A stretch of 64,000 bases of DNA. Source: a virus. Taxonomy: Duplodnaviria; Heunggongvirae; Uroviricota; Caudoviricetes. Below, one piece after another: positions 1,181 to 61,419 of the stretch (position 1 is its first letter; each line of letters opens with the position of its first letter). Made by a program: the position numbers and the translations under genes. The notes beneath the pieces were generated by a model. The model saw only the letters and a program-made list of their open reading frames with translations, did no database searches and was not told where the DNA came from. The stretch lies in IMG/VR virus record IMGVR_UViG_2609459792_000007. One strand, written 5' to 3'.

Positions 1181-1207
1181 ATGCCCGGCAACACGCTGGG
1201 CATTTTC
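1181..1207 (+). terminator. putative hairpin terminator downstream of metG
   Basis: atgccc-ggcaacacgct-gggcat stem-loop followed by tttc. Confidence 0.4.
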
Positions 1208-1243
1208 ATATAGACACAATCCCTTCTGATTTACGCATACCCT

Positions 1244-1258
1244 AAAACAATTTGTTTT
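1244..1258. promoter_or_regulatory. operator-like palindrome AAAACAA-T-TTGTTTT (family A)
   Basis: Perfect 15-bp dyad; overlaps presumed -35 region upstream of GATAAT at 1274-1279. Confidence 0.5.
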
Positions 1259-1293
1259 CTGCCTTTTGTTAATTGAGATAATAAGCCACATAA

Positions 1294-1309
1294 GAAAACA
1301 AATTGTTTC
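1294..1309. promoter_or_regulatory. operator-like palindrome GAAAACAAATTGTTTC (family A)
   Basis: Dyad between a GATAAT -10-like hexamer and the RBS of the 1322 gene. Confidence 0.55.
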
Positions 1310-1321
1310 GGAGTGGTTGAA

Positions 1322-1621
1322 ATGTTGAACATTACCCAAGCCTACCAGGTGGCATTGATCAGCTCATCTCATACATCAGAGGAAGATGCTCGCCGATTCA
1401 TGATCGCAAGCAATGAGCTGGATTGGGTTTCACAAATTGAGTACGGTTGCATTGTCCACGCCGGGTTACAGGACGATGACTGGAAAGATGAGTTGCGTCG
1501 ATATGGTATATCCGAGGGCGCGATTGCGAACATTCAGAAAGTACTTGATGTAGGCTTTGACTCTGTACATTTTGATTGTGGCGCACCGGTCGTTGAAGGG
1601 CTTGAGTGCTGGCAATGGTAA
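1322..1621 (+). CDS. hypothetical small acidic protein
   Basis: ORF with RBS ggagtgg 6-8 nt upstream of ATG 1322 (ORF track starts at 1313); preceded by family A operator. Confidence 0.6.
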   Translation: MLNITQAYQVALISSSHTSEEDARRFMIASNELDWVSQIEYGCIVHAGLQDDDWKDELRRYGISEGAIANIQKVLDVGFDSVHFDCGAPVVEGLECWQW

Positions 1622-1657
1622 TCCGGCAATCGCTTCATACTAGATAACGGAGAATTT

Positions 1658-1843
1658 ATGCTTAAAGAAGACTCATATCTACTAAAGGCGCTTGAAATGC
1701 GTGGCGTTGAACCTACAGTGAAAAACGCTCACGATATCTACCTTCAGTTTTCGCCAGAGCTGAAACAGCTCATAAATAAATATGGAGTGAATGACTCCAG
1801 CGTCAAAGCCATGATAGATGATGAATTAGACCATCTCATCTAA
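1658..1843 (+). CDS. hypothetical protein (61 aa)
   Basis: ORF with RBS acggag 7 nt upstream of ATG. Confidence 0.5.
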   Translation: MLKEDSYLLKALEMRGVEPTVKNAHDIYLQFSPELKQLINKYGVNDSSVKAMIDDELDHLI

Positions 1844-1859
1844 CCAAACCGTTGATAAT

Positions 1860-2790
1860 GGCGGTCACAATTTGATTCTTTTCTATAAGAATCCGTTGAT
1901 CGCCACTACTCCCCTTCCATACCCGCAATCACATCCTTAAATATCAATAAGTTATAGTTGTTTATACAATCAAGAAAACAACTGAATAACAGATCAACGA
2001 AACGTCAACGCTTTCACCCGATTTGGTCTAAAAAATTGACGTTTTCACACATCACTGCTTATACCCGTAATTCTACGCAGCAGACAGCGCCACAGCGTCC
2101 AATTTTCACCACAGACGACCCAACACACTACCAACAAAAACACACGCTCAAAATCGTTCCCGTTGCGTTACATAACCATATAAACAACTTATTTTCAGGC
2201 ATAACAAAACAACTAAATAACACATATGCCATTACCAAAAACAACCAACCTCTTTATGGCAGGCTACCGAAAAGACCCACCTCTTCTTCCCAGGCTACCG
2301 GACAACCAACCTAACTTTCACAGGCAATCCGAAAACATTCATACGCGCGATACCCACGATACGCCATTCCCCAAATAGCGAAGCACACCAGAATCACTGA
2401 AACCCCCAACGAAGCCTGTAACCGCAAGGTTTCTCTCAATCCCAAAAGACACGAAACAGAACAATCACGGGAAACGCCATTACCCAACACACGAATAACT
2501 ACAAAAGCCTTTCACGCACTCCAGACAAACACAATAACGAAAGGAATCGCCCACCTGCCATTACTCCATATACGGAGAAGAACAATCACCAAAACGACGA
2601 GAACCCCCCATAGAAGAACCACCGCAAAACGAACGAAACCACATACACCGACAGATAAAACAACACACCCAATTCACCAACAGAAATAGTCGTCGTATAG
2701 AACGTTCTGGAAGGAGTGAGCATTAACGCCTATAGAGAGGTTGAGACAGATAAAACACGAAGAAAACACAACATGTATAGCGAAGAAGCC
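1860..2790. repeat. A+C-rich, G/T-poor non-coding tract (strong strand compositional skew)
   Basis: About 900 bp dominated by A and C on the plus strand; only a low-complexity ORF (1958-2314) with no RBS; recurring caggctaccg words. Confidence 0.6.
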
Positions 2791-2899
2791 AGGTATGTAT
2801 AAGTGGGGAGGGAAGGAGGGGTGTCGCCTCCTTTTTCGTATTTATTCAACTCCTGATTTTATCCCCCGTAACACCCCTACGGTCAGCCTTCGGTCCATA

Positions 2900-3035
2900 C
2901 AGGGAAAAGGTTGCATCCCGCTACAGAAACGGCTGGGTTGCCTTCGGGGAACGGCTGGAGGTTTTCAGGGAAACGGTCGAGTTGCCTGTGTGGATTTCGG
3001 GAGAAGGCTCGATGCCGGTTCAGGAACGGTGGCGT
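2900..3035. repeat. iteron-like direct repeats G(G/A)AACGG(C/T), about 22-bp spacing, 5 copies
   Basis: cagaaacggctgg 2924, gggaacggctgg 2947, cagggaaacggtcg 2967, gggagaaggctcg 2998, caggaacggtggc 3021. Confidence 0.6.
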
Positions 3036-3364
3036 ACCGGTATAGCGAGAGGGAGAGTTGCGGCTACCCACCTGTAATGTGCGGGAAGAAGAGAGGCGCT
3101 CACGTAGGCGGACTTGCTTACCGCTGGATTCCCTCTGAATGCCCAGCTACAGCGTAATTGTGCCAGACAGTCAGCGGGTCACAATCGATTTCAGTAGGTT
3201 TTCGGGGAGGGGATTATTCTGCCCACCAGCCATCTTCGGCCACTAAATCAGAATAATGTAAAAAGTGTACTCGATACTGAACCTGAAAACTCACTGCCAA
3301 AACAACATTCACCGGAATAAAATCCTTTTTAGCCTGTGCGTTATTGCGATAATAACACCAACGA

Positions 3365-3380
3365 GAAAACAAGTTGTTTA
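3365..3380. promoter_or_regulatory. operator-like palindrome GAAAACAAGTTGTTTA (family A)
   Basis: Sits 10 nt downstream of GATAAT (3345-3350) and just upstream of RBS aagga. Confidence 0.55.
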
Positions 3381-3391
3381 AGGATTGCTTT

Positions 3392-3721
3392 ATGTTTGCA
3401 AATATCGACATCAACCAAATCAAGAAATTAACTCAAAAAGAGTTTGATCAGTTTTATGAGTTAGAAGGTTGGTCTTCCACTCTGATCAATTCGCGGTGGG
3501 TGCTTGAGCTGATGACTCGTGATGACGCACCTGCTTTGATGATCAGCGACCTGGGTGAAGATGCTGACTTTATGGATATGAGCGAATTTTGTGTGGACAC
3601 ATACAACCGCAGCCAGAAGTACTACTTCACATGCGATAGCGAAAATGACGTGATTTCTAAGGTCTATCTTCACCTCGTCCAGCATTGGGACGTTCAGGAG
3701 TTTCTTGAAGTATTCGAGTAA
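3392..3721 (+). CDS. hypothetical small acidic protein
   Basis: ATG 3392 with RBS aagga at 3380-3384; ORF track alternative start 3374 lies inside the operator; D/E-rich translation. Confidence 0.6.
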   Translation: MFANIDINQIKKLTQKEFDQFYELEGWSSTLINSRWVLELMTRDDAPALMISDLGEDADFMDMSEFCVDTYNRSQKYYFTCDSENDVISKVYLHLVQHWDVQEFLEVFE

Positions 3722-3728
3722 CCCCAAC

Positions 3729-3757
3729 CAAAGCCAGCATTGCTGGCTTAATTTCTC
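3729..3757 (+). terminator. hairpin terminator
   Basis: aagccagc-attg-ctggctt followed by aatttctc. Confidence 0.5.
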
Positions 3758-3848
3758 TATAGCCGCAGGGAAGAACCTGCATATCGCTCATGCACCTGAT
3801 CAATATGCTTTGTAGCCGTTTTCTTACTGGTATTATTTACGCCATTGA

Positions 3849-3864
3849 GAAAACAAGTTGTTTA
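3849..3864. promoter_or_regulatory. operator-like palindrome GAAAACAAGTTGTTTA (family A)
   Basis: Downstream of TATTAT -10-like hexamer, immediately before RBS acggag. Confidence 0.55.
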
Positions 3865-3874
3865 CGGAGTTGTG

Positions 3875-4186
3875 ATGAAAAAATCATTGGTTCTTGGTCT
3901 GGACAAAGACCAGAAGAGAAAAGAGAAGCCTGCGCTGGTTGCTCAATTAACTTTGCTGGACATCGTTGCCAATGGAACCTCTATTCGTCTGTTCCGTGAA
4001 ACAGCGGTGTCTTTCGATAAAAACACCTTTACTCGTTATGTAATGAATGTTCGTCGCCAGCGTGGAAAAGGCTGGGTGGCATTTCAAAGAATGTGGCCGG
4101 AACATCAGCTCGAACTGGCTTTGATGGAAGTTAACCGCGTGGCCCAGCAAGAGATTCAGAGAGCATCAGTGATGGCAATAGCCTGA
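3875..4186 (+). CDS. hypothetical basic protein
   Basis: ATG 3875 with RBS acggag; ORF track start 3845 lies inside the operator. Confidence 0.55.
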   Translation: MKKSLVLGLDKDQKRKEKPALVAQLTLLDIVANGTSIRLFRETAVSFDKNTFTRYVMNVRRQRGKGWVAFQRMWPEHQLELALMEVNRVAQQEIQRASVMAIA

Positions 4187-4220
4187 TAATGTGCAAGTGG
4201 TAATTAGTCGACAGTACGAC

Positions 4221-4249
4221 AGCCCCGCCATCCTTACGGGGCTTTTTTG
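4221..4249 (+). terminator. rho-independent terminator
   Basis: agccccg-ccatccttac-ggggct followed by tttttt. Confidence 0.8.
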
Positions 4250-4253
4250 TATT

Positions 4254-4269
4254 GTAAGTACATACTTAC
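4254..4269. promoter_or_regulatory. palindrome GTAAGTA-CA-TACTTAC (family B, TAAGTA type)
   Basis: Perfect inverted repeat directly after the terminator and upstream of the 4313 gene. Confidence 0.5.
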
Positions 4270-4312
4270 GATCATAGAATATAAAAATAACCAAAACACT
4301 ACGGAGAGTGAA

Positions 4313-4708
4313 ATGACCGTTAAACGCGAAAAACTGACAGTTGATGTTTACTATGCCTCTGAAACCGCCGAAGGTAAGAATGTGGCAAAAATCACCGTTG
4401 TTACGTACAACACCGAAACTGGTGCCGAAGTCCAGGCCAGTACGATTGTGCGTAAAGGTGATGCCTCCGGCGGCGAGTACGCGACTCAATACCAGTCCAT
4501 TCTCGATGCAACTGACCCGCTGCTGCTGAAAATCGAGAACTACTTCCGCCAGGTTGATGAAGAGGTGTTTGAAACCATGATGAATATGGTTAACACCGTA
4601 TTCGCCTCCAGCCTGAATACCAACACTACCTGGATTGGTCAGTACGGCCTGCGCATTACCTCTGGCATTCCTGCCGACACCTTAATCCCTGAAAGCGTAT
4701 TCGCTTAA
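4313..4708 (+). CDS. hypothetical protein
   Basis: ATG 4313 with RBS ggagag 5 nt upstream. Confidence 0.65.
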   Translation: MTVKREKLTVDVYYASETAEGKNVAKITVVTYNTETGAEVQASTIVRKGDASGGEYATQYQSILDATDPLLLKIENYFRQVDEEVFETMMNMVNTVFASSLNTNTTWIGQYGLRITSGIPADTLIPESVFA

Positions 4709-4720
4709 TCCTCTTTAAAT

Positions 4721-4748
4721 GGCGCGTAAACCGCGCCATTTTATTATG
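4721..4748 (+). terminator. rho-independent terminator
   Basis: ggcgcg-taaacc-gcgcc followed by attttatt. Confidence 0.75.
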
Positions 4749-4751
4749 CCC

Positions 4752-4768
4752 GATAACAATTTGTTTTC
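4752..4768. promoter_or_regulatory. operator-like palindrome GATAACAATTTGTTTTC (family A)
   Basis: Same word plus tctgcc flank as the copy at 1244. Confidence 0.5.
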
Positions 4769-4825
4769 TGCCTTATCTGATTTGTGAAAATGATTTCACT
4801 GAAGCAACTTAATAAGGAAACCATC

Positions 4826-5200
4826 ATGGGACTTGATATCTATATCGAGACGCAGCCTAAAAACGATCTGAATAACGAGGCATCCAGAAAGCAGGTTGCT
4901 TACTTCCGTAAGTTCAATGCGCTCGTTGGGTGGATGGAGCGCAACGTAGGTGAAGTCGAAAATTGTGAGCTTTTAGAATTAACGATGAATGACATTTGTT
5001 TTCTGAAGGCTCATTTGATGCACATAAACGAAAGTAATTGCGAAGAGTACTTGCCTACCCGGGAAGGTTTTTTCTTCGGCAGTCAGGAGTACGATGAAGG
5101 TTACTGGCATGATGTGGGGCAGTTGAAAGAGCTTGTGGAAGATCTGATTAAGAACCACGACTTTCACAATAACAGACTGACCTTCTGCGCCTGGTGGTAA
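4826..5200 (+). CDS. hypothetical protein
   Basis: ATG 4826 with RBS aaggaaac; ORF track start at 4784. Confidence 0.6.
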   Translation: MGLDIYIETQPKNDLNNEASRKQVAYFRKFNALVGWMERNVGEVENCELLELTMNDICFLKAHLMHINESNCEEYLPTREGFFFGSQEYDEGYWHDVGQLKELVEDLIKNHDFHNNRLTFCAWW

Positions 5201-5202
5201 AT

Positions 5203-5346
5203 ATGGGCGATTTCAAGAAACGCCTGAAGGAAAGAGCCGAGATGGTCAGAAAGCGAAACGCCTCTTCTGTCATCAGATACGCAAGGCAGTTTAGTCGCAA
5301 CAACAAATCAGTTGAGGAAAAGATCCTTAGCGTAATCGGGCGATAA
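5203..5346 (+). CDS. possible small basic protein (47 aa), below ORF-track size cutoff
   Basis: ATG 3 nt after the upstream stop; K/R-rich translation MGDFKKRLKERAEMVRKRNA...; ends just before terminator. Confidence 0.3.
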   Translation: MGDFKKRLKERAEMVRKRNASSVIRYARQFSRNNKSVEEKILSVIGR

Positions 5347-5349
5347 TTA

Positions 5350-5377
5350 TTAAGGCCACCAGCATTGGTGGCCTTAA
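5350..5377 (+). terminator. hairpin terminator, copy 1 of a twin element
   Basis: ttaaggccacca-gcat-tggtggccttaa. Confidence 0.6.
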
Positions 5378-5501
5378 ATGACTTTTAATAACCGAAGGTT
5401 AGTTTGAAACCTGGCTATCAACTTCCAGAACCTTTCTTGTGTATTCAGCCTGTATTAACTTCTTTTATGCCTTATCTACACTGCGATAATTACACCAACA
5501 A

Positions 5502-5518
5502 GAAAACAACATGTTTAC
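5502..5518. promoter_or_regulatory. operator variant GAAAACAACATGTTTAC (family A)
   Basis: Preceded by GATAAT (5485-5490) plus tacaccaac spacer as at 3345 and 5970. Confidence 0.5.
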
Positions 5519-5535
5519 GCAGTGAGGATATGCTC

Positions 5536-5817
5536 ATGACTGATTTCACCATTACCCCTAAAGCACAAAATGTATTCCTTGAATCATGGCTGGACTTGCC
5601 GGAAACAGAACAGCAAGAAATGGATCATGTGGATTATGACGAGCAGGTAAGCACGCGATTCTTCCACTTTGAGGGCTGCGTTTACGACATTGCCGACTTC
5701 ATGCGAGATGACCGCTTCCCTGAATGGCACGCCAGTTATCCACTAAACGCCTTTGCCATGCTGATGATCCGTGTGGATGATTCAGGGGATACCATCGACA
5801 TCGGTCTGCTCCACTAA
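5536..5817 (+). CDS. hypothetical small acidic protein
   Basis: ATG 5536 with RBS gagga 7 nt upstream; D/E-rich. Confidence 0.6.
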   Translation: MTDFTITPKAQNVFLESWLDLPETEQQEMDHVDYDEQVSTRFFHFEGCVYDIADFMRDDRFPEWHASYPLNAFAMLMIRVDDSGDTIDIGLLH

Positions 5818-5820
5818 AGA

Positions 5821-5848
5821 TTAAGGCCACCAATGCTGGTGGCCTTAA
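5821..5848 (+). terminator. hairpin terminator, copy 2 of twin element (loop inverted)
   Basis: ttaaggccacca-atgc-tggtggccttaa; same stem as 5350 with loop gcat changed to atgc. Confidence 0.6.
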
Positions 5849-5986
5849 ATGACCATCCTGTTTCCCGCAGGCTAAAAACACCAACCTCTTACCTCCAGGC
5901 AACCGACAAACCCACCTGTTCCCGTCCGGCTACCGCAACTTTCCACTTTGACGCCTTATTCGTACAACGATAATTAACACCAACAA

Positions 5987-6002
5987 GAAAACAATTTGTT
6001 AT
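5987..6002. promoter_or_regulatory. sigma70-like promoter plus family A operator GAAAACAATTTGTTAT
   Basis: TTTGAC (5946-5951), 16-nt spacer, GATAAT (5968-5973), then the dyad, then RBS aagga. Confidence 0.6.
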
Positions 6003-6021
6003 TTACGATAAGGAATTAATC

Positions 6022-6504
6022 ATGAATTTTATCGCTACTGTAAACGCACCCGCACATGGCAATATCGCTGTAACGTTCTCTGACATTGAAAAACGAGTAC
6101 TTGGTGCATGGCGCGACAATGAGACGGTAGAACTGTCAGCACAAGAAAAATGCATTATTGCACGCGACATCATTGGCAATCGTCGTTACTCGCGGGTATT
6201 TGAGAAAGCGTATGTGGTAAATTCTGGGTTCGGAACGTTCGTCTTTCCGGTGCGCTCCGGGCGATTCTGCCAGTCCAAGCTGATTGAGTTCGCTACGCAG
6301 ATTTCTGTCTGGATTAAAACTCAATCGTCGTTCAAATTTTCCGACGATGAAGCAGTATCGCAGGGGATGCGGATCGCCAACAATGCGATTAAATGCAAAA
6401 ACATTACGTATACCGCTGGCGTTGACACATGGAAACTGTTTTGCGCTAACTTTATGCTGAATGTATACGCAAGCAACCGCATCCACATCCTTGATGGCGT
6501 GTAA
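6022..6504 (+). CDS. hypothetical protein (160 aa)
   Basis: ATG with RBS aaggaa; preceded by promoter/operator module. Confidence 0.65.
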   Translation: MNFIATVNAPAHGNIAVTFSDIEKRVLGAWRDNETVELSAQEKCIIARDIIGNRRYSRVFEKAYVVNSGFGTFVFPVRSGRFCQSKLIEFATQISVWIKTQSSFKFSDDEAVSQGMRIANNAIKCKNITYTAGVDTWKLFCANFMLNVYASNRIHILDGV

Positions 6505-6513
6505 CTGAGAAGA

Positions 6514-6535
6514 GGGCCAGAAACGGCCCTTTCTC
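6514..6535 (+). terminator. hairpin terminator
   Basis: gggcc-agaaac-ggccc followed by tttctc. Confidence 0.6.
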
Positions 6536-6553
6536 TATAGCCACCAGCTGCCG

Positions 6554-6633
6554 CAGGGAAATTTTCAGAAACGGCGAGGAACGTATTCATGAGCCGACGG
6601 GAAACGGCCAGGATTTTTTCGGGAAACGGCTGC
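6554..6633. repeat. second iteron-like cluster TTTTC(A/G)GGAAACGGC
   Basis: cagaaacggcgagg 6566, cgggaaacggccagg 6598, cgggaaacggctgc 6620; last two exactly 22 bp apart. Confidence 0.55.
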
Positions 6634-8870: not shown

Positions 8871-9395
8871 TCAAAAAGGCAAAATTCGTTCAACCCAATC
8901 GAACAAAACAACTATTTTTCTACCGTTCTCGACACGTAGTGTAACCTGACAAGCATCTGCGCCTGCTGACACCCCCTCAATTTCACGGCCATCCGCCATG
9001 TACACCCTTATAGATTTGTTTGCTTTGTAGGCTTGGTTGCAAATTGCAAAAAAATCGCGGCGTGATGGCCGATTATCGACATAATCAGGGTGAACTGTTA
9101 GTCGACCTTTGAAATCGTGAGCGATACTGTCAACCACACCTGATTCAATTGTACTAATGCGTTCAAGTGGGAGCCTTATACGATTTTCTTTGTCAAAAGG
9201 GGCTGGGCAAAGGTCAACTTTGTTACGAGATGGCATGAGGCCATAAACGTACATGCAAAACGCCTGGCCATCTTCGAGAGTGACCCTTACAGGAATTTGT
9301 TCTCTGCGCCAGAACATCAGTAGTTTTTCAACGTTAGTGTAATCTCGCGGCCAGAGTTCAGCTTGGATACCGTAGGTAATATCTTTGGTTGTCAT
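8871..9395 (-). CDS. hypothetical protein
   Basis: ORF; likely start MTTKD at 9395 overlapping upstream stop. Confidence 0.5.
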   Translation of the reverse strand: MTTKDITYGIQAELWPRDYTNVEKLLMFWRREQIPVRVTLEDGQAFCMYVYGLMPSRNKVDLCPAPFDKENRIRLPLERISTIESGVVDSIAHDFKGRLTVHPDYVDNRPSRRDFFAICNQAYKANKSIRVYMADGREIEGVSAGADACQVTLRVENGRKIVVLFDWVERILPF

Positions 9396-9399
9396 GTCA

Positions 9400-9822
9400 T
9401 CACAGAGTTGTTGGCAGAATGTCGATGTCACCAGAATTGCTGGTGAACACCCTGAACGCTTTTGTGTCTCCATTCTTCAGAGTCGTTTCTCGCTCTTGAC
9501 GAGCGGGGTTTAGAGCACATAAACCTGCACCTTCAAGAGATGCACCCACAATTAATTCTCCGGCATTTAAATGGAAAGTCGCTTTTTCGCCTGTAGCCAG
9601 TTTTGCGACAGTTTCGCCATTGATGAAAATGGAAGCATCACATCCAGCTCCTACAAAACCTGTGTCTCTCATTACCACCAACGTAGCTGGCGCTGCGCTT
9701 TGATACTTGAACACTTTGGCCTGCGGTGCTGGTTTGGCGTCATGGATTGATATTGGACGTGATTGGCACGCGGTAAGCATCAACACTGGTAACGTTAGTA
9801 GAGGGAGAAGCGAGTATTTCAT
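9400..9822 (-). CDS. putative lipoprotein
   Basis: MKYSLLPLLTLPVLMLTAC: signal peptide with lipobox LTAC. Confidence 0.6.
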   Translation of the reverse strand: MKYSLLPLLTLPVLMLTACQSRPISIHDAKPAPQAKVFKYQSAAPATLVVMRDTGFVGAGCDASIFINGETVAKLATGEKATFHLNAGELIVGASLEGAGLCALNPARQERETTLKNGDTKAFRVFTSNSGDIDILPTTL

Positions 9823-15102: not shown

Positions 15103-15144
15103 GAAAACAAGTTGGTTAGCAGATGCAGTAAACAAGTTGTTTTA
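15103..15144. promoter_or_regulatory. two family A operator copies upstream of terminase operon
   Basis: gaaaacaagttggtta (15103-15118) and taaacaagttgtttta (15129-15144), then hairpin gagcgc-atggac-gcgctc. Confidence 0.5.
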
Positions 15145-15182: not shown

Positions 15183-15815
15183 ATGACGGTCGAAAAAGAC
15201 GAGGTAAAAACTCGCCTGACACCAGCGGAGTGGGCCGAAGCTGAAGCCAAATGGACGTCAGGCGAATATACACTCTCAAAGCTGGAGGAAGAGTACGGCA
15301 TTCGTCGTGAAACACTCTCCAGACATTTCAAAAAGCGAGGATTAGAGAAAGGCGCGGACTCTGTTGGGAAGATGGTTCGTGAGTCTCTTAAATCTGACGC
15401 AGAGCTTCGCGCTAAAGCCCGTGCGGAAAAGATAGAAGAACGTCGTACACGTTATGACGGCTGGGCGTATGCGTTGGGGCAGATGGTGATGGTCGAAGTC
15501 ACTACGGCCAAACGTGAGGGTAAGCCTTTAGGGGCGATTGAGGATTCTCTCAAGAGCTTACAGAGAGCCAGTAATACCCTTGCAAAATGCTTTGAAGTTT
15601 CGTCCAAAGCATTGGGCATGGATCATGCGGAAAATGACGAGGAAGAAATTCCGAACCTGGTATTTGGTGAGCTTACGCCTTCCCAGGTGGCGAAATTACG
15701 TCAGGAAGACGACGAGCCTGAAATCATCGATGACGAATTGCTTGAGACGTTGGAAGAAGAAGCTCTAAGCGAATTTGATGCGACAGATGATGGAAGTGAA
15801 GGGGAGGACGAATAA
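15183..15815 (+). CDS. putative terminase small subunit
   Basis: HTH-like N-terminus, acidic C-terminus, immediately upstream of and overlapping large terminase. Confidence 0.55.
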   Translation: MTVEKDEVKTRLTPAEWAEAEAKWTSGEYTLSKLEEEYGIRRETLSRHFKKRGLEKGADSVGKMVRESLKSDAELRAKARAEKIEERRTRYDGWAYALGQMVMVEVTTAKREGKPLGAIEDSLKSLQRASNTLAKCFEVSSKALGMDHAENDEEEIPNLVFGELTPSQVAKLRQEDDEPEIIDDELLETLEEEALSEFDATDDGSEGEDE

Positions 15816-45807: not shown

Positions 45808-45823
45808 GAAAACAAGTTGTTTC
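45808..45823. promoter_or_regulatory. family A operator GAAAACAAGTTGTTTC upstream of partition operon
   Basis: Dyad between promoter-like sequence and RBS of ParA-like gene. Confidence 0.55.
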
Positions 45824-45857: not shown

Positions 45858-46526
45858 ATGACCAAGATCTTTGTGGTTGGCGGCACAAAGGGCGGGCCTG
45901 GCAAATCCACCGTTGCCCAGCAAATTGCCGTTTGCCTGAAAGTCAAAAAGAAGAAGAAGGTTTATATCACTGATATAGATATTCAGCGCACGACAACAAG
46001 CTGGTGTGAAGACCGTCGACAGAACGAAGACCTTGAGCTGATTCCTTTTGCATACGTTCAGGATGACATCATTAAGCACCTAAAATCGCTTCAGGGTAGA
46101 GCTGAGTTTGTAGTGGTAGATGCTGGTGGCTTTGACTCCGAAATTCAGCGACAAGCGATGCTGATGGCCGACGTTATCATTATCCCGCTTCGTCCTAAGC
46201 GTCGTGATTTGAAATCTCTGCGTGACATCGATCCTATTATCGACAATGTTCGTAATGTAAACGATAAAGTGAAGGTCCGCGCGGTCATGAACCAGTGCCC
46301 GGCTTTGCCATCACAAGTGTCTCGCATTCTGGCGGCTAAAGAGATTGTCGAGACGTTTGGCATCGAGTCTGCGCCAGTCAATCTATATAACCGCAACGTC
46401 TACGATGATGCGGAAGAGTCAGGTCGTTCTATCTTTGAAATGACCGGTAGCGAGCGCGACAAAAAGGCGGAAGCCGAGTTTGAAGAATTTGTAGATTATC
46501 TGTTGAGTCTGGAGGAAGAAGAATAA
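45858..46526 (+). CDS. ParA/MinD-family partition ATPase (small type)
   Basis: Deviant Walker A GGTKGGPGKST; about 220 aa. Confidence 0.8.
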   Translation: MTKIFVVGGTKGGPGKSTVAQQIAVCLKVKKKKKVYITDIDIQRTTTSWCEDRRQNEDLELIPFAYVQDDIIKHLKSLQGRAEFVVVDAGGFDSEIQRQAMLMADVIIIPLRPKRRDLKSLRDIDPIIDNVRNVNDKVKVRAVMNQCPALPSQVSRILAAKEIVETFGIESAPVNLYNRNVYDDAEESGRSIFEMTGSERDKKAEAEFEEFVDYLLSLEEEE

Positions 46527-46885
46527 TGTCCATGAAAATGGGTGACCTAGCAAAGCGCAAAGAGCCTGATGCACCGGCTAAGAACACAACTCCTTTGCGC
46601 CAACCAGTCAGACCACAAGGACGCCCGACTCGTGGCAAAGAGAAAATTAAAAGCCGCACTATGTCACTGGAAGACGAATACTTCGAGCTTCTGGAAATGA
46701 TGAAGTTTATCCCTCGTTTCGAGAAGTTCACCCGCTCTGATGTGATTCGTGCTGCTATTTTCCATCTGGCAGAGAAGTCACCGCAGGAAATCGAGGACAT
46801 CGTGAAACTTAACGAGGCGATCACCGCTGCCGATGTCACGATGCGTACCGATGAAATCAAACGAGAGTTGATGAAGAAAGGTTAA
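46526..46885 (+). CDS. putative partition centromere-binding protein
   Basis: Coupled to ParA-like gene (ATGTCCATG overlap); basic N-terminus and ribbon-helix-helix-like C-terminal half. Confidence 0.5.
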   Translation: MSMKMGDLAKRKEPDAPAKNTTPLRQPVRPQGRPTRGKEKIKSRTMSLEDEYFELLEMMKFIPRFEKFTRSDVIRAAIFHLAEKSPQEIEDIVKLNEAITAADVTMRTDEIKRELMKKG

Positions 46886-48737: not shown

Positions 48738-48753
48738 GAAAACAATTTGTTTA
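48738..48753. promoter_or_regulatory. family A operator GAAAACAATTTGTTTA upstream of helicase gene
   Basis: Dyad followed by RBS aaaggaaag. Confidence 0.55.
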
Positions 48754-48771: not shown

Positions 48772-50112
48772 ATGACCGAACTTTGCCATACAGGACGCGG
48801 GCTGTCCGAAGAGTTTGATGAAGATTTCCAGAACAGACTGACGGCATATTTTTGTCGTGATCACGAGTTTCTTACTCGTGCGGGAGATCTGGTTGTGCCT
48901 AGCCAATTTGCCAATGCGGCCAATGCCATATTGGTTAATATGGTTTCGGGCTATTACCGTATGTACAAGAGCGCGCCCTCTTCATCTGCAATTCTGGATA
49001 TGCTTAAGCGTGCGAAACGCGATAAGACTATCCGTGAGGAACTATTCGCCGATGTTGTTGCTGCGTTTAAGCGCATCCTTGCAGAAAAATTGTCCGATAC
49101 CTCGTACATGGTTGACCAGGTATCAACCTTCGCAAAAAGCGTAGCGTTTGATGATGCTCTGATTAAGGCTGCTGAACTGAAAGAGAAAGGCGACTTTCAG
49201 GGGGCGATGGCAATCATGGCCAAGGTTCAGCAGATTGGATCGAACGAAGCGACCGGAATCTATGACTACTACACCTCCGCAAGTGAGCGATTGAAAGCGC
49301 GTGAATATGAGGCTTCAGAGGAGTATGTGCCAAACAGCATTACAACTGGACTCCCTCTGCTCGATAGGTTGCTGTACCAAAAAGGCTGGGCGAAGCGTGA
49401 AATGGTGCTCTTCATGGGGTTCGCTAAATCCGGTAAATCGACCGCAATGGGTGAGTTTTCCATAAACGCAACGCTTGCTGGCTACAATGTTCTGTATCTC
49501 TCGCTGGAGGTTCACACCAACATTTTGTCCGACCGTTTTGATGCAAGATTGTCGGAGACGGAAATGTCCAAGTTGGTGGAACGGCGCGATGAAGTTCATC
49601 GTAAGTTGGCAGAGTTGGGAGCCTCTAAGGGGATTGGTAGTTTGTGGGTTGTTGAGCGTCCGTCAGGAAGTATGTCACCGGCAGATCTGGACCGTATGCT
49701 TAACAGCATGAAAGCCAACGGCATGGTGCCTGACATGGTTGTTGTCGACTACGCAGATTTGATGCGTGCCAGTTATGACCTTCGTGATGATCGCGCCAAC
49801 ATTCGTAGTATCTACACCGATTTACGTGCTCTTTATGACAAGCATAACGTTGCTGGTATCACGGCGTCGCAAACAAACCGTGAAGGTGGCGCGTCAGAAG
49901 TTGCCACAATGATGCACGCTGCCGACAACATCGAAAAAGTACGTATTGCTGACCTGGTAATAACGATCAACAAAACCGAAGAAGAAGAAGCGAAAGGAGA
50001 GGCTCGTCTCTACTTTGCTGGTTCGCGTAACCAGCAGGGAGGGATCAGCATTCGCGTTAAACAAAACCTCGAACAAATGCGCTTCATTGAGCGGATCTTA
50101 GACGTTACCTAA
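48772..50112 (+). CDS. DnaB-family replicative helicase
   Basis: RecA-like C-terminal domain with Walker A GFAKSGKST and Walker B VVVDYADLM. Confidence 0.75.
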   Translation: MTELCHTGRGLSEEFDEDFQNRLTAYFCRDHEFLTRAGDLVVPSQFANAANAILVNMVSGYYRMYKSAPSSSAILDMLKRAKRDKTIREELFADVVAAFKRILAEKLSDTSYMVDQVSTFAKSVAFDDALIKAAELKEKGDFQGAMAIMAKVQQIGSNEATGIYDYYTSASERLKAREYEASEEYVPNSITTGLPLLDRLLYQKGWAKREMVLFMGFAKSGKSTAMGEFSINATLAGYNVLYLSLEVHTNILSDRFDARLSETEMSKLVERRDEVHRKLAELGASKGIGSLWVVERPSGSMSPADLDRMLNSMKANGMVPDMVVVDYADLMRASYDLRDDRANIRSIYTDLRALYDKHNVAGITASQTNREGGASEVATMMHAADNIEKVRIADLVITINKTEEEEAKGEARLYFAGSRNQQGGISIRVKQNLEQMRFIERILDVT

Positions 50113-55681: not shown

Positions 55682-55756
55682 GATGGTGTAGCTCAGCGGT
55701 AGAGCAGTTGGCTGTTAACCAACTGGTCGGTGGTTCGAATCCACCCACCATCGCCA
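55682..55756 (+). tRNA. tRNA-Asn (anticodon GTT)
   Basis: Manual cloverleaf: acceptor gatggtg/caccatc, D arm gctc-agcggta-gagc, anticodon loop ctGTTaa, T loop ttcgaat. Confidence 0.85.
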
Positions 55757-55761
55757 ATTTA

Positions 55762-55848
55762 GGGGAGTTAGTCCGTAGAGGTAGCGGGGTAGACTGTAAA
55801 TCTACTGTCATGGAGACTCGGGTGGTTCGACTCCATCACTCCCCACCA
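55762..55848 (+). tRNA. tRNA-Tyr (anticodon GTA), long variable arm
   Basis: Acceptor ggggagt/actcccc, anticodon stem-loop gtaga-ctGTAaa-tctac, long variable arm, T loop ttcgact, 3' CCA. Confidence 0.7.
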
Positions 55849-55852
55849 AATT

Positions 55853-55928
55853 GCCGGTTTAGCTCAGTTGGTAGAGCGCCTGCCTTGTAAGCAGGATGTC
55901 AGCGGTTCGAGTCCGTTAACCGGCACCA
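55853..55928 (+). tRNA. tRNA-Thr (anticodon TGT)
   Basis: Acceptor gccggtt/aaccggc, D arm gctc-agttggta-gagc, anticodon loop ctTGTaa, T loop ttcgagt, 3' CCA. Confidence 0.8.
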
Positions 55929-57263: not shown

Positions 57264-58367
57264 ATGAAAAATAGCTTTGACAGAGCACGCGCTGCGGAGA
57301 ACACCTCAAAAGAGGCGATTGAGTATCTCGAAAGAGCATCTCAAATGCAGGCCGTTATGATCTCGCAGGTTAGCATTGATATGAGATTCTCGGACGCATT
57401 CATGTTATTCACTCGCTTATCTCTGCTGATAACCAGACGTCGGCCAGAGATCGCTGTTCATTGTATTTTGATACATGTTTTGCCGCACATTGCCGATGTA
57501 AAAGTAAGTGACATTAATAGGTTCATGGTGAACCAGCTGGTCAACCCACTAATACTGGATGGCAAAATTGTTATGGGCCGCCGCGTTTTCTCTCTGATGA
57601 AACAGTTCCTTAGCTGGTGCGCCTTCCAGGGGATGATAGACGTGTCACCGTTAAACGATATGTCACTAAACAAAGTTGCCGGTGGCGCAAAGCCCACACC
57701 TCGCGAGCGGAAGCTGACCGACGCAGAGGTATGGGTGTTCTGGAATATATGGGACTACTTCAATGTGTGCGCTGGTACAAAATGGGCGGCCAGGCTGTGT
57801 CTTGTATCAGCAAGACGACCTGACGAAGTACTGCGGGCTAAAAAAAGTGAGTTCAATCTTAAGCGTGGGGTTTGGAATCAAGGCAAGAGAAACAAGTCAG
57901 CACGTGAGCATTCGCTGCCTTTAAGCACATTAATGCGCACATGCATTGAAGAGTTGTTCGAATACGGTAAAGACAGCCAGTGGCTCGTGCCTTCGAATAA
58001 AAAAATCGGGAAAGACCTTCCTATGTCTAAAGTGGCAATAGCCCAGGCATTACGTCGTATTCTGGAACGACCAGAACTGATGGAGCTTGAGCCATTTACA
58101 CCCCGAGATTTGCGCCGTACTGCGCGTAGTTACTTCCCAGCATTAGGCATAAGCCAGGAGGTATCACGCAAAATCATGAACCACAGTCTTGAGGGGATAG
58201 ATCGGGTCTACGACCGGCACGATTATATGGACGAGATGCGAGACGCCTTAGAAAGTTTCTCGACGTACATCGCATCAATCGTAGAGCAACCGGATTTAGA
58301 CGAAATTGACCACAAATTCAAGGGAGATCGTCTATCAACAGAGCTTATTCGTGTAAATTTTTCATAG
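57264..58367 (+). CDS. tyrosine recombinase / integrase family protein
   Basis: C-terminal catalytic-domain-like residues (ARRPDE, DLRRTARSY, MNHS, RVYDRHDY). Confidence 0.7.
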   Translation: MKNSFDRARAAENTSKEAIEYLERASQMQAVMISQVSIDMRFSDAFMLFTRLSLLITRRRPEIAVHCILIHVLPHIADVKVSDINRFMVNQLVNPLILDGKIVMGRRVFSLMKQFLSWCAFQGMIDVSPLNDMSLNKVAGGAKPTPRERKLTDAEVWVFWNIWDYFNVCAGTKWAARLCLVSARRPDEVLRAKKSEFNLKRGVWNQGKRNKSAREHSLPLSTLMRTCIEELFEYGKDSQWLVPSNKKIGKDLPMSKVAIAQALRRILERPELMELEPFTPRDLRRTARSYFPALGISQEVSRKIMNHSLEGIDRVYDRHDYMDEMRDALESFSTYIASIVEQPDLDEIDHKFKGDRLSTELIRVNFS

Positions 58368-58748
58368 AGACTTTATGGCCTCAACAACCTTTTGTGATGC
58401 GCCTTTCTCTTTACCGAATCGCTCGTTATACGCAGCAAGAACCTGTTTTTCGTCCTCGTTAAGAGGAGCGGTGCCTTCTTTGTATAAAAATGCTGCGAGT
58501 TCAGGTTGGCGTTCTTCCAGCACCATCATCATAAGACGACTTGGTTCAATACCCAGCGCCAGCGCCAGCGGACGAACCTTATCGATAGGCAAAGGAATTT
58601 TGCCACTTTTAATTAAAGAAAGGTTGTTGGCATTTTTATAACCAATAAGTCTGGCTATTTGGGCCTGACTCATAGGTGAGGATTCAATCAGCCCTGCGAT
58701 AAAAGCAGCATAGCGACTTTCTATAAATTCAATCTTGTTGTCAGACAT
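58362..58748 (-). CDS. XRE-family helix-turn-helix transcriptional regulator
   Basis: HTH-like segment SQAQIARLIGYKNANNLSLIKSGK in a 128-aa protein. Confidence 0.7.
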   Translation of the reverse strand: MSDNKIEFIESRYAAFIAGLIESSPMSQAQIARLIGYKNANNLSLIKSGKIPLPIDKVRPLALALGIEPSRLMMMVLEERQPELAAFLYKEGTAPLNEDEKQVLAAYNERFGKEKGASQKVVEAIKSL

Positions 58749-59212: not shown

Positions 59213-59310
59213 CCCCTCTTCTCCCTGCGCGAATGGCTTAGTTCCCTGTTCGCGCAGTGCTACATTAAACACACTAGTAAATAATTTGTTTTCATAACAA
59301 AGGATTAGCC

Positions 59311-61419
59311 ATGTCTAAAAAACGTTCCATCAAAGAGGTTCAGGACTTCCGTGACAGTGTAAAACGAGTAGTCGCTCTCCTTTCAGGTAAAAACATCCCT
59401 GTTGCAGAACGAGGGGACGACGCTTATGTACGCTATAACGATGATGGAGAGCCAATTCTCGTAAACATCCCATCAATCCCGGATAACGCAACACCGGCAT
59501 TGATGAATGCTGTGCGCGGATTTCTCGATCATGAGGTTGCTCACATTTTGTTTACCGATATTCGTGTGTCCAACAAAATGAGAGAAAAAGGACGCGTTCC
59601 TTCCTGGTCGCTATGGAATGCCTTAGAAGACGTGTTCATCGAGCGAAAAATGGGTCAGGTCTTTAACGGAACAAGACGTAATCTGATGGCAACTCAGCGC
59701 CTTATAATCGAAAAAGTCTTTAAACCAAAGGCTTCAGAGGCTATTGCTTATTGTGGCAAAGATCAGCGCGCGCTTTTTCTAAACTTCTTTCTCTGTCCGG
59801 TTGTAAGAGCCTGGGATGGCCAAGCACCGTTCGTAGATTTCATGGATGAATATTGGCCTGTCATTGAGAAACCAATTTCATTATTAAAAGAACATGGTAT
59901 CGATGTGGCCGTGCGTAACATGTCTTGCACCGAGGATTGTGTAAAGGTGGCTGCGACCATAGCTAAGATCCTCAAAGACACTGAAAGTGAAAGCAAAGGT
60001 AAGGAGTCAGCTCCGGGAAAAACTTCCGATCCTTCAGACGCTGACCAGACGGATGCCTCTGGAGAAAACAATGAAGACAACGAAGATCATGAGACACCCT
60101 CATCGTTAGATAATCACAAATCTATTAAATCAGAGTCACATAGTAAGCACAAACATGATAATAACGACAGTGATGATTCAGATAATCCTGAATCATCAGA
60201 AACAATATTCGATGATACAGAAAATGATAAAGCGGTATCAGATTCTGATGCTTCTGATAACGCGGCGTCAGAATCATTAACCGCTGACCACGAAAAAAGA
60301 AAAACGACAGAAGACGGCTCTTCAGACATTCCAACTCCGTCAAAAATGAGTCTGGAAGAGGCTTTAGAGGAGTTGGATAGCATGGAAGATGAAGTCGGAG
60401 GCATGACAGAAGATGCGCTATCCGAAACGATTAAAAGCGAGTTAACAGAAAGCTCGAAAAGCGAATACAGGCCATACAATCGCTCATACGACTTCATCGG
60501 CTCGATTGATCAGGCAGAAGCCCATATCAAACGGCTTATTAAAACATTCTCCGATATTGATTTAGGTGGATATCCAATCAGCCGTTATCGCATCGTTCCT
60601 GAAGGCAACCAACTCTTCGACAAATATATTGAAAAGCACCTTTCGTCAGGTGTTTCGTCGACGCTGGCAAAAGACCTGGAACGTGCAATAGCAAGCAGAA
60701 ACAGAGTTCAGTTTATACCTGGCCAGCGTCGGGGGCGCATTCATGGTTCAAGTATCTACAGATTAACAATGAATGATGATCGCGTGTTTCGTAAAAAAGA
60801 AGAATCTAAAGCCGTTAACGCCTGTGTTCAACAAGTGATTGATTTATCGGGTTCAATGAGTGGCGAAACGATAAAACTAGCTCTTGCAAGTGCATATACC
60901 ATCGCCGATGCACTTGATCGAATAAATGTTCCCAACATTATCACCGGCTTCACTACATTTGGCAGTCATATGGCAGCAGGAGAACTTAAGGCTATCAAAT
61001 ATGAGTTCTCTCGCTTTGAATCTTTAATGCTACCTATCATCAAAAATTGGAATGAAAAAGCAAATTCTCGCGAAGTTCGCTCACGTATGGGGTGCGTAGG
61101 CTACACATTCCCACTTCTTAATAACGTGGATGGTGAAAGCATAGCCAGCCTTGCATCGTTATTTTCCGGTCGCTTGGAGGACAGGAAGATCATGCTTGTT
61201 CTGAGCGATGGCGCGCCGTGGGCTGTTGGGAGAGGTTTTGACGCCCATTTGCGTTCGGTTACGAAGCAAATTGAAACGCAGACTGACATTGATTTGATGG
61301 CAATTGGCATCATGACTGATGCACCGGAGAGATTTTACGCAAATCATGCCCTGGTAACTAGTGTTGATAGTCTTGGTTCATCTGTAGTTACTGAACTATC
61401 TCGTATCATTTTGAAGTAA
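59311..61419 (+). CDS. CobT-like von Willebrand factor A domain protein with acidic linker
   Basis: MIDAS-like motif VIDLSGSMSG; long D/E/S-rich low-complexity region. Confidence 0.65.
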   Translation: MSKKRSIKEVQDFRDSVKRVVALLSGKNIPVAERGDDAYVRYNDDGEPILVNIPSIPDNATPALMNAVRGFLDHEVAHILFTDIRVSNKMREKGRVPSWSLWNALEDVFIERKMGQVFNGTRRNLMATQRLIIEKVFKPKASEAIAYCGKDQRALFLNFFLCPVVRAWDGQAPFVDFMDEYWPVIEKPISLLKEHGIDVAVRNMSCTEDCVKVAATIAKILKDTESESKGKESAPGKTSDPSDADQTDASGENNEDNEDHETPSSLDNHKSIKSESHSKHKHDNNDSDDSDNPESSETIFDDTENDKAVSDSDASDNAASESLTADHEKRKTTEDGSSDIPTPSKMSLEEALEELDSMEDEVGGMTEDALSETIKSELTESSKSEYRPYNRSYDFIGSIDQAEAHIKRLIKTFSDIDLGGYPISRYRIVPEGNQLFDKYIEKHLSSGVSSTLAKDLERAIASRNRVQFIPGQRRGRIHGSSIYRLTMNDDRVFRKKEESKAVNACVQQVIDLSGSMSGETIKLALASAYTIADALDRINVPNIITGFTTFGSHMAAGELKAIKYEFSRFESLMLPIIKNWNEKANSREVRSRMGCVGYTFPLLNNVDGESIASLASLFSGRLEDRKIMLVLSDGAPWAVGRGFDAHLRSVTKQIETQTDIDLMAIGIMTDAPERFYANHALVTSVDSLGSSVVTELSRIILK

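Follow-up and report, generated by a model that had tools for sequence, protein, structure and literature searches.

Small acidic single-gene cassettes behind a shared palindromic operator in an SSU5-like phage-plasmid of Escherichia coli: candidate inhibitors made at entry

The principle that mobile elements make small acidic inhibitors as they enter a new cell is well known, and several described systems invite comparison. Ocr, encoded by the first gene at the entering end of the T7 genome, and plasmid ArdA are anti-restriction proteins built as elongated helical DNA mimics, which bind and inhibit type I restriction enzymes; computed from the T7 record, Ocr has 29% aspartate plus glutamate (D+E) and a charge density of -23.9 per 100 aa, and T7 gp5.9 one of -15.4 per 100 aa. 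In the regulons of P1 C1, of KorA/KorB in IncP-1 plasmids and of omega in pSM19035, many dispersed promoters of partition, replication and accessory genes share one short palindromic operator. AcrIIA13 and AcrIIA13b (PDB 7ENI) are acidic mimics of the protospacer-adjacent-motif (PAM) duplex that block SauCas9 (PMC13147308), and the anti-defence islands of plasmid leading regions consist of small, mostly uncharacterised genes on one strand, with expression presumably taking place at entry (Samuel et al. 2024, PMC11541004). Here, we analyze a 64,000-nucleotide stretch of the Caudoviricetes record IMGVR_UViG_2609459792_000007 from IMG/VR (henceforth the window), in which a preliminary description had singled out three open reading frames (ORFs), starting at 1322, 3392 and 5536, as short, acidic early genes lying behind the first promoters next to the element boundary and possibly coding for DNA-mimic anti-defence proteins. 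The sequence comparisons presented below indicate that these three, which we term A, C and H, are true genes, each transcribed on its own as a single-gene cassette within an array of accessory genes in an SSU5-like phage-plasmid.

The acidic character of the three products is pronounced. ORF A (1322-1621, + strand) codes for 99 aa with 17.2% D+E, a net charge of -11 and an isoelectric point (pI) of 4.30; C (3392-3721, +) for 109 aa with 20.2% D+E, a net charge of -14 and a pI of 4.21; and H (5536-5817, +) for 93 aa with 21.5% D+E, a net charge of -15 and a pI of 4.11. Among the 80 non-overlapping ORFs of the window, which served as the reference, D+E content has a median of 12.3% and a 90th percentile of 17.1%, and pI a median of 6.2 and a 5th percentile of 4.48. 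Since all three exceed the former limit and fall below the latter, they belong to the extreme acidic tail, in line with the preliminary description, and all lie inside 4.5 kb. Members of the C family at 25-35% identity uniformly have a net charge of -13 to -15 and a pI of 4.05-4.33, and members of the H family range from -10 to -15, a plasmid homologue of 197 aa even reaching -30. Strongly negative net charge thus appears to be a conserved trait of the A, C and H families.

One could hold that these ORFs are not genes at all and that their acidity is an accident of composition, given their small size and the differing start codons that RefSeq and ENA assign to A, H and the further cassette F. 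The conservation pattern refutes this: the ratio of nonsynonymous to synonymous substitution rates (dN/dS) is 0.10 for H whether it is compared with SSU5 or with a more distant relative, 0.15 for C against its orthologue and 0.15 for A against SSU5_105, with dS in the range of 0.9-2.5. Further, full-length homologues occur in hundreds of plasmids, the PHROG families match end to end, and the ORFs have promoters, terminators and, for each of A, C and H, a good ribosome-binding site. The start of H at 5536 is backed by the alignment of homologues and that of A at 1322 by its Pfam match, which covers residues 12-99. On these patterns, we take A, C and H to be real genes under purifying selection and consider the compositional accident next to untenable.

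The element that carries them is, by its matches, a circular SSU5-like phage-plasmid of E. coli. With Escherichia phage Cyrano (OV696614, the pLF82 phage-plasmid), the region 1200-6600 shares 97.8% identity. Matches to this region occur in 245 of 5426 complete E. coli genomes, at 260 places in total, every one on a plasmid of ~100-115 kb and none chromosomal. The window opens with the 3' part of metG, a methionine-tRNA ligase gene (1-1160, +). Upstream of the cassette array, Cyrano and the plasmid pTLYA-2 have genes for an S24 peptidase and for ApbC (Mrp/MinD-like), followed by a full-length metG. Because apbC-metG is annotated inside both elements, the metG of the window belongs to the element and is not a host flank, and therefore no element boundary lies near the acidic genes. 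The position next to a boundary, on which their anti-defence candidacy had partly rested, is thus lost. It also sets them apart from Ocr, in that A, C and H sit behind the element's own metG and not at a known entering end.

A repeat search recovered a module of 55-76 nt upstream of A, C, D, H and I, five of the nine cassette genes (A-I) that occupy 1322-6504, and a related module upstream of F. When aligned, the modules present a constant order of a weak -35 element, an extended -10 element, 10-12 nt, the sequence AGAAAACAAnTTGTTT and the ribosome-binding site. The extended -10 reads TGnGATAAT, with TGGTATTAT at D and the TG missing at I. At A, C, D, H and I, the sequence AGAAAACAAnTTGTTT stands downstream of the -10 and ahead of the ribosome-binding site; it is a 16-bp palindromic operator whose core, AAACAAnTTGTTT, is a perfect palindrome. 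The module of A (1245-1308, +) combines TGAGATAAT (1274-1282) and the operator AGAAAACAAATTGTTT (1293-1308) with a second, inverted operator copy over the -35 region (1245-1260), the 16-nt arms of the inverted pair being 100% complementary. That of C (3345-3379, +) has the extended -10 TGCGATAAT (3345-3353) and the operator AGAAAACAAGTTGTTT (3364-3379), and that of H (5482-5516, +) again TGCGATAAT (5482-5490) and the operator AGAAAACAACATGTTT (5501-5516). A simple sigma-70 scan left the cassette promoters unflagged because their -35 hexamers are weak; from the alignment, we read them as promoters of the extended -10 type. The promoters that the preliminary description had placed ahead of the three genes are accordingly borne out as promoter-like modules directly upstream of each.

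The operator is not confined to the array. Counting the core AAACAAnTTGTTT with up to one mismatch, we found 13 copies in the window against 0.45 expected, a number that no shuffle reached. Eight of the 13 fall within 1245-6001, seven at cassette promoters and one, degenerate, in a non-coding stretch (2182-2194). The others stand directly upstream of terS (two copies, 15105-15142; gene at 15183-15815), parA (45810-45822; gene at 45858-46526), a DNA helicase gene (48740-48752; gene at 48772-50112) and a 702-aa CobT-like gene (59279-59291, with one mismatch; gene at 59311-61419), all on the + strand. In SSU5, the homologous 14 kb hold nine cores against 0.10 expected, ahead of the homologues of D, H and I and of other small genes. 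In L005, a relative whose C homologue is 31-33% identical, 12 kb hold eight against 0.12. Thus, the repetition of one operator that marks a P1 C1- or KorB-like regulon is seen in all three elements. In relatives with such 31-33% identical versions of C, the operator precedes C-like, D-like and I-like genes and a 561-aa DUF4942 gene. Distant relatives differ in gene content, and the DNA that they have best kept in common is the promoter module (75-88%), which is therefore best seen as the portable front end of a cassette. As A, C and H share one operator, they are co-regulated, and the pattern as a whole shows that a single palindromic operator defines an element-wide regulon that includes the acidic genes, which points to one regulator for the whole element.

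The likeness to P1 C1, KorA/KorB and omega extends to the genes covered, namely partition, replication and accessory genes, and predicts a burst on entry followed by shut-down. The operator sequence, AAACAAnTTGTTT, differs from those of P1 C1, KorA/KorB and omega. Unlike in those regulons, the operator here travels with a whole promoter cassette before interchangeable single genes.

We then surveyed, for every operator in the window and in all fetched loci, the ORF that immediately follows it; these loci are mostly stretches of viral contigs. The strict promoter-plus-operator pattern picked out only six short loci in viral contigs. A scan with the operator alone gave 120 stretches, and because many of these are single chance matches in unrelated contigs, only clusters recurring in at least two loci were used; one operator-linked 'cluster' was rejected as a chance match in a T4-like portal gene. 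Nine of the 11 recurrent small-protein clusters have a pI below 4.8; besides A, C and H, these are six more clusters, of which one is TerB-like. The exceptions are the basic protein D and a 144-aa protein with a pI of 5.8; I, likewise basic, is not in the set, having 160 aa. Among the other small proteins linked to the operator, Pfam matched only one TerB-like and one DUF7238 protein.

As to what binds the operator, three repressor candidates can be named: a 119-aa protein encoded directly after parA (46526-46885), the basic protein D and an XRE-type repressor (58362-58748). When Pfam was run on the 119-aa protein, an 88-aa protein before terS and others, the only DNA-binding domain found was a weak helix-turn-helix in the XRE-type repressor. 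The 119-aa protein is labelled 'RelE/ParE putative toxin' in the Cyrano annotation, and Pfam gives no match either way. By eye, it resembles a ribbon-helix-helix centromere-binding partner of a small ParA, with a basic N-terminal tail, a short strand and two helices, which makes it a candidate for operator binding.

On the expression of the cassettes in the resident state, data come from published RNA sequencing (RNA-seq) of the near-identical element Cyrano in its lysogen E. coli LF82 (S1 Table, normalised counts, overnight LB culture; PMC9928086). Since its authors put the putative repressor CYRAN_45, with a count of 95.8, at 10-fold above local background, that background is ~9.6. Against it, A (CYRAN_101) has a count of 7.5, C (CYRAN_105) of 12.8 and H (CYRAN_110) of 6.7; by these published data, the three are transcriptionally silent in the resident plasmid-prophage Cyrano. 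In the same table (PMC9928086), G (CYRAN_109) reaches 57.9, ~6-fold above background, I (CYRAN_111) 25.5 and parA (CYRAN_28) 49.8, ~5-fold above background. In macrophage samples, the signal of A, C and H goes up ~4- to 20-fold, alongside many other Cyrano genes, and ciprofloxacin induces Cyrano 39-fold (PMC9928086).

These counts weigh on another proposal, by which the resident plasmid would express A, C and H as lysogenic-conversion morons, antitoxins or immunity proteins that serve the host or make it dependent. Formally, an own promoter and terminator around a single gene set between others is the definition of a moron, and C, D, F-G, H and I conform to it; small acidic proteins are also typical antitoxins. 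Further, the DUF5983 family, to which A belongs, is regularly encoded downstream of the CbtA toxin (PMC10790755). However, morons are equally defined by expression from the repressed prophage, and A, C and H, being at background, are therefore not lysogenic-conversion genes; the moron list of the RNA-seq authors includes G (CYRAN_109) and CYRAN_102 and leaves out all three (PMC9928086). Nor does a toxin-like gene adjoin them or PADLOC return a match, and we judge this proposal improbable.

Next, we examined the protein families. Pfam, NCBIfam, PHROGs and PADLOC were run on all nine cassette proteins and gave a domain only for A, the PHROG matches being throughout to families of 'unknown function'; for A, C and H, Pfam at E<=1 returned nothing else. 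A is a DUF5983 protein (PF19419; 49 bits against a cut-off of 27, E 7.5e-13; also phrog_5003), and so the earlier statement that the translations give no direct similarity evidence fails for A. DUF5983 genes lie regularly downstream of the CbtA toxin gene in CP4-type islands (PMC10790755; bioRxiv 10.64898/2026.06.09.728211), as in those of the CP4-44/CP4-57 type; A, though a member of the family, stands alone, with neither cbtA nor cbeA. The idea that A, C, H and F are diverged paralogues was rejected, as hhalign found no relationship between them, and A, C and H come from three unrelated families.

The C family is very small, with 22 clusters by profile search and nine matches in an exhaustive scan of 1.84 billion representatives. 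PLSDB has 229 plasmids with C; Escherichia is the source of 221, and 220 are typed non-mobilizable. Its remote homologues sit in the same array of other phage-plasmids, adjoining a DUF4942 protein and DUF5983. The AlphaFold2 (AF2) model of C is confident (pLDDT 84.9, pTM 0.79) and predicts a mixed alpha/beta domain, at variance with the elongated helical form of Ocr and ArdA. Compared with BFVD, it matched nothing at E<0.001. A PDB match of C to a 'multicystatin' was dropped, as no stretch passed alone. The predicted domain has the same order of secondary-structure elements as AcrIIA13b, with a weak score that is below the usual level for a confident fold assignment; the identity of C with AcrIIA13 is 5%, and NTF2- and cystatin-like folds score nearly as well. 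E. coli is not known to carry a type II-A Cas9, and the target of C would therefore differ from that of AcrIIA13.

In contrast to the narrow range of C, H (phrog_1845) is found in 758 PLSDB plasmids from Klebsiella, Escherichia, Citrobacter, Enterobacter, Yersinia and Salmonella, with the C-terminal 40 residues nearly invariant in the alignment of homologues. Many RefSeq, UniRef and nr records label it an 'ABC transporter'; we doubt the label because H has only 93 aa and matches no Pfam or NCBIfam model, and it looks like a propagated annotation error. By profile comparison (probability 98.1%, E 7.5e-14), the whole H domain corresponds to residues 109-196 of a 197-aa protein with a net charge of -30 and a pI of 4.05, which occurs in 102 large plasmids, mostly from Citrobacter, 83 of them typed conjugative or mobilizable. 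In the conjugative plasmid pCFR-4109 (NZ_CP026234, 280 kb, typed MOBH), the gene for this protein belongs to an array of small genes that run in a single direction from mobI onward, among them one for Lar restriction alleviation (Pfam E 4e-11); this array may be the leading region of that plasmid. The array (locus L139, 645-17821) comprises ~27 small, mostly unannotated genes downstream of mobI and includes a DinG helicase gene.

The wide distribution of H bears on a further alternative, in which the three are ordinary lytic-cycle proteins, such as replication or recombination accessory factors, assembly chaperones or lysis-lysogeny regulators, that are acidic by chance. H is conserved across the whole SSU5 group in at least six genera with the low dN/dS given above, the operator also precedes terS, and the transcripts rise with many other Cyrano genes in the macrophage samples. 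Yet the H domain occurs in non-phage MOBH plasmids and the A family in CP4-type islands by cbtA/cbeA, neither of which has a lytic cycle, and single-gene promoter-terminator cassettes swapped between relatives are typical of accessory genes. We find this alternative quite unlikely.

We instead favor a model in which an element-encoded putative repressor would occupy the operators in the resident state, and all cassettes would be switched on together in a burst once naked DNA reaches a cell that lacks the repressor, or upon induction. The logic would be analogous to that of the P1 C1 regulon, of IncP KorA/KorB and of the zygotic induction of plasmid leading regions (PMC11541004). The acidic products would then most likely bind and block basic, nucleic-acid-binding host proteins, acting stoichiometrically; the targets might be defence nucleases, those of restriction included, or some other host factor standing in the way of establishment. 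A, C and H resemble Ocr and ArdA in being small, acidic and single-domain, and in being predicted to be made on entry into a repressor-free cell. In favor of this model, the H domain lies in mobI arrays with Lar and homologues of C in the same array of other phage-plasmids. Moreover, known anti-defence systems are reported to be rare in SSU5-group phage-plasmids, surveys having found almost none (bioRxiv 10.1101/2025.09.12.675607), and therefore the niche is open. We consider entry-burst inhibitors of a defence system or of another host nucleic-acid-binding protein the best reading of A, C and H; it is unproven, and we prefer it without calling it probable. The anti-defence candidacy raised by the preliminary description accordingly stands on the character of the genes, namely their conserved charge, shared operator, silence in lysogens and, for H, a domain found beside mobI and Lar, and no longer on their position.

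Several observations count against such a function, and against DNA mimicry most directly. First, the charge densities of A (-11.1 per 100 aa), C (-12.8) and H (-16.1) stay well short of that of Ocr and reach only the level of gp5.9. Second, no match to a known anti-defence family, be it Ocr, ArdA, KlcA, gp5.9 or any Acr family, was found for A, C or H in Pfam, NCBIfam or PHROGs, the Pfam families ArdA and Antirestrict (the latter that of ArdB-KlcA) included, and PADLOC found no defence-model match for any protein of the array. Third, in AcrIIA13b the negative charge runs along the DNA-mimicking face of a beta-sheet (PMC13147308), whereas the predicted strands of C contain only three of its 22 D/E residues, most lying in loops and helices. 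Fourth, AF2 modelled H with low confidence (pLDDT 65), a Foldseek search of the PDB with this model came back empty, and sequence searches of the PDB with A, C, H, E, F, I and the H profile gave no credible relative. Fifth, Pfam finds nothing in two of the putative repressors, the 119-aa protein after parA and D, and the expression of operator-fronted parA in lysogens means that repression is not all-or-none. Finally, small acidic proteins also serve as antitoxins, chaperones and regulators. These points weigh against an assignment as DNA mimics; the profile searches and structure predictions that the preliminary description had put forward as checks yielded a family for A and a confident model with a weak AcrIIA13-like resemblance for C, and neither an anti-defence family for any of the three nor a usable model for H.

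The presence of the operator at parA, the helicase gene and the CobT-like gene suits another explanation, namely that A, C and H are plasmid-establishment or maintenance factors that modulate replication, partition, copy number or the SOS response (PsiB-like or as adaptors) and do not act on immune systems. Two clusters of three 30-bp direct repeats each (2244-2328 and 5852-5933, +; consensus ACCnACCTnTTn5CAGGCwAC) flank cassettes C-H. Their six copies, against 0.18 expected, share one orientation, and both clusters are kept at the same positions in SSU5 and Cyrano; they look iteron-like. The first lies near the degenerate operator at 2182-2194, in a conserved stretch of ~1.5 kb (1850-3390) that has neither a credible ORF nor a RefSeq coding sequence. 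The occurrence of the H domain in conjugative plasmids would fit establishment factors as well. Conversely, A, C and H are at background in a stably maintained plasmid in which parA is expressed; C is confined to elements of Escherichia and Shigella, with 31-33% identical versions elsewhere, a turnover atypical of core maintenance genes; and Pfam shows no similarity of the proteins to PsiB, Ssb or partition proteins. We regard this explanation as unlikely.

The non-coding stretch has further features of its own. It shares 67% identity with the corresponding gap of SSU5; in distant relatives, too, this position is a gap, and operator copies lie within it. Its + strand is strongly A+C-rich at 2000-2750 (GC skew -0.23, AT skew +0.30). 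A structured RNA was considered and rejected, as Rfam gave no match at the gathering threshold or at E<=1 and folding was no better than that of shuffles on both strands.

The entry-burst reading can be extended to the array as a whole, which would then be the phage-plasmid counterpart of the leading-region anti-defence islands: a swappable bank of a dozen or more unrelated families of small acidic inhibitors (A, C, H and at least six others behind the same operator in relatives) under one repressor, silent in the resident plasmid, released in an entry burst and including at least one new nucleic-acid mimic that disables a defence nuclease. The islands resemble the array in consisting of small, mostly uncharacterised one-strand genes presumably expressed at entry, and the H domain lies in a similar MOBH array beside mobI and a Lar gene. 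They differ from it in that they lie next to oriT, on the side of a conjugative element that is transferred first, whereas the element here is a non-conjugative phage-plasmid (220 of the 229 carriers of C are non-mobilizable), with neither an oriT nor a single-strand promoter, and in that they cluster with recognised anti-defence genes, whereas Pfam, NCBIfam and PHROGs recognise none in the array of the window. We rate this extension as doubtful. If it holds, the portable promoter-operator module would serve as a search handle for new anti-defence genes in Enterobacteriaceae.

The remaining cassettes of the array, several of which share the interval 3392-5817 with C and H (D, E, F and G), follow the same plan with variations. 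B (1658-1843, +; 61 aa, pI 4.88, phrog_11467) is probably co-transcribed with A, and no terminator was recognised after A-B. The possibility that B is a gp5.9-like RecBCD inhibitor was rejected, with PF25708 at 17.0 bits against a cut-off of 24.5 and only 17 residues aligned. Terminator hairpins follow C (3731-3749), D (~4221-4248), E (~4720-4745), G at the end of the F-G unit (5350-5377), H (5821-5848) and I. The hairpins at 5350-5377 and 5821-5848, which flank H, are nearly identical (28 nt, TTAAGGCCACC...GGTGGCCTTAA), as would be expected if the H cassette had been inserted or duplicated with its terminator. D (3875-4186, +; 103 aa, pI 10.5, phrog_5125) lies behind a module (3828-3863, +) whose -10 occupies 3828-3836 and whose operator occupies 3848-3863. 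The protein, a candidate for DNA binding, is conserved in SSU5 and also in L005 (37% identity to the L005 homologue). E (4313-4708, +; 131 aa, pI 4.48, phrog_2473) has a terminator and neither a recognised promoter module nor a visible operator copy. The promoter of F-G (4753-4791, +) has an inverted operator over the -35 (4753-4769), none downstream, and the extended -10 TGTGAAAAT (4783-4791). It serves F (4826-5200, +; 124 aa, pI 4.75, net charge -11, phrog_7971) and the translationally coupled G (5203-5346, +; 47 aa, basic, pI 11.3). G is the sole gene of the window's array above the moron cut-off in lysogens, with the coupled F at background (PMC9928086). I (6022-6504, +; pI 9.2, phrog_1641), whose module (5969-6001, +) has GATAAT at 5969-5974 and the operator AGAAAACAATTTGTTA at 5986-6001, is the most widely conserved cassette behind the operator (10 loci).

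Around the array, gene content varies between relatives. SSU5 lacks F-G and metG, and Cyrano has another gene, coding for a coiled-coil protein, in place of B. In the distant SSU5-like phage-plasmids (loci L005-L010), the first operator-controlled cassette codes for the 561-aa DUF4942 protein (e.g., L005 614-2299), where the window has metG. In the element, metG adjoins the genes for an ApbC/Mrp-like ATPase and an S24 (LexA/UmuD-like) peptidase; SSU5 has no metG there. After metG and the array, the window continues with a leftward block (an FljA-like gene and a helicase gene), ParB-like nuclease genes, terS at 15183, which is 9-14 kb away from the acidic genes, structural and lysis genes, parA, the helicase gene, three tRNA genes, an integrase gene and the XRE-type repressor gene. 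The FljA homologue (8871-9473, - strand; 200 aa) matches Pfam Flag1_repress (E 2.4e-84) with a weak Hfq-like C-terminal signal; FljA is the Salmonella repressor of phase-1 flagellin. The three adjacent tRNA genes (55682-55925; Rfam scores of 75.5, 43.5 and 74.9 bits) are annotated as Asn, Thr and Ser in Cyrano.

While small acidic inhibitors made at entry are a familiar principle, the families described here, the portable promoter-operator cassette and the acid bias of the operator-linked gene set, in phage-plasmids with almost no known anti-defence genes by survey (bioRxiv 10.1101/2025.09.12.675607), are new. A literature search combining SSU5 with anti-defense yielded nothing. A generic guess about acidic early proteins has become a testable unit, comprising the 16-bp operator cassette, the acidic bias of its genes, their being off in lysogens and the link of H to mobI arrays. 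Phage-plasmids of the SSU5 group move between strains and genera, and clinical isolates of E. coli, Shigella, Salmonella, Klebsiella and Yersinia commonly carry them. Should the proteins turn out to inhibit host defence, the operator would offer a simple sequence handle by which to find more such families. Even if the proteins are not defence inhibitors, the regulon would still be the first described global control circuit of this group of phage-plasmids.

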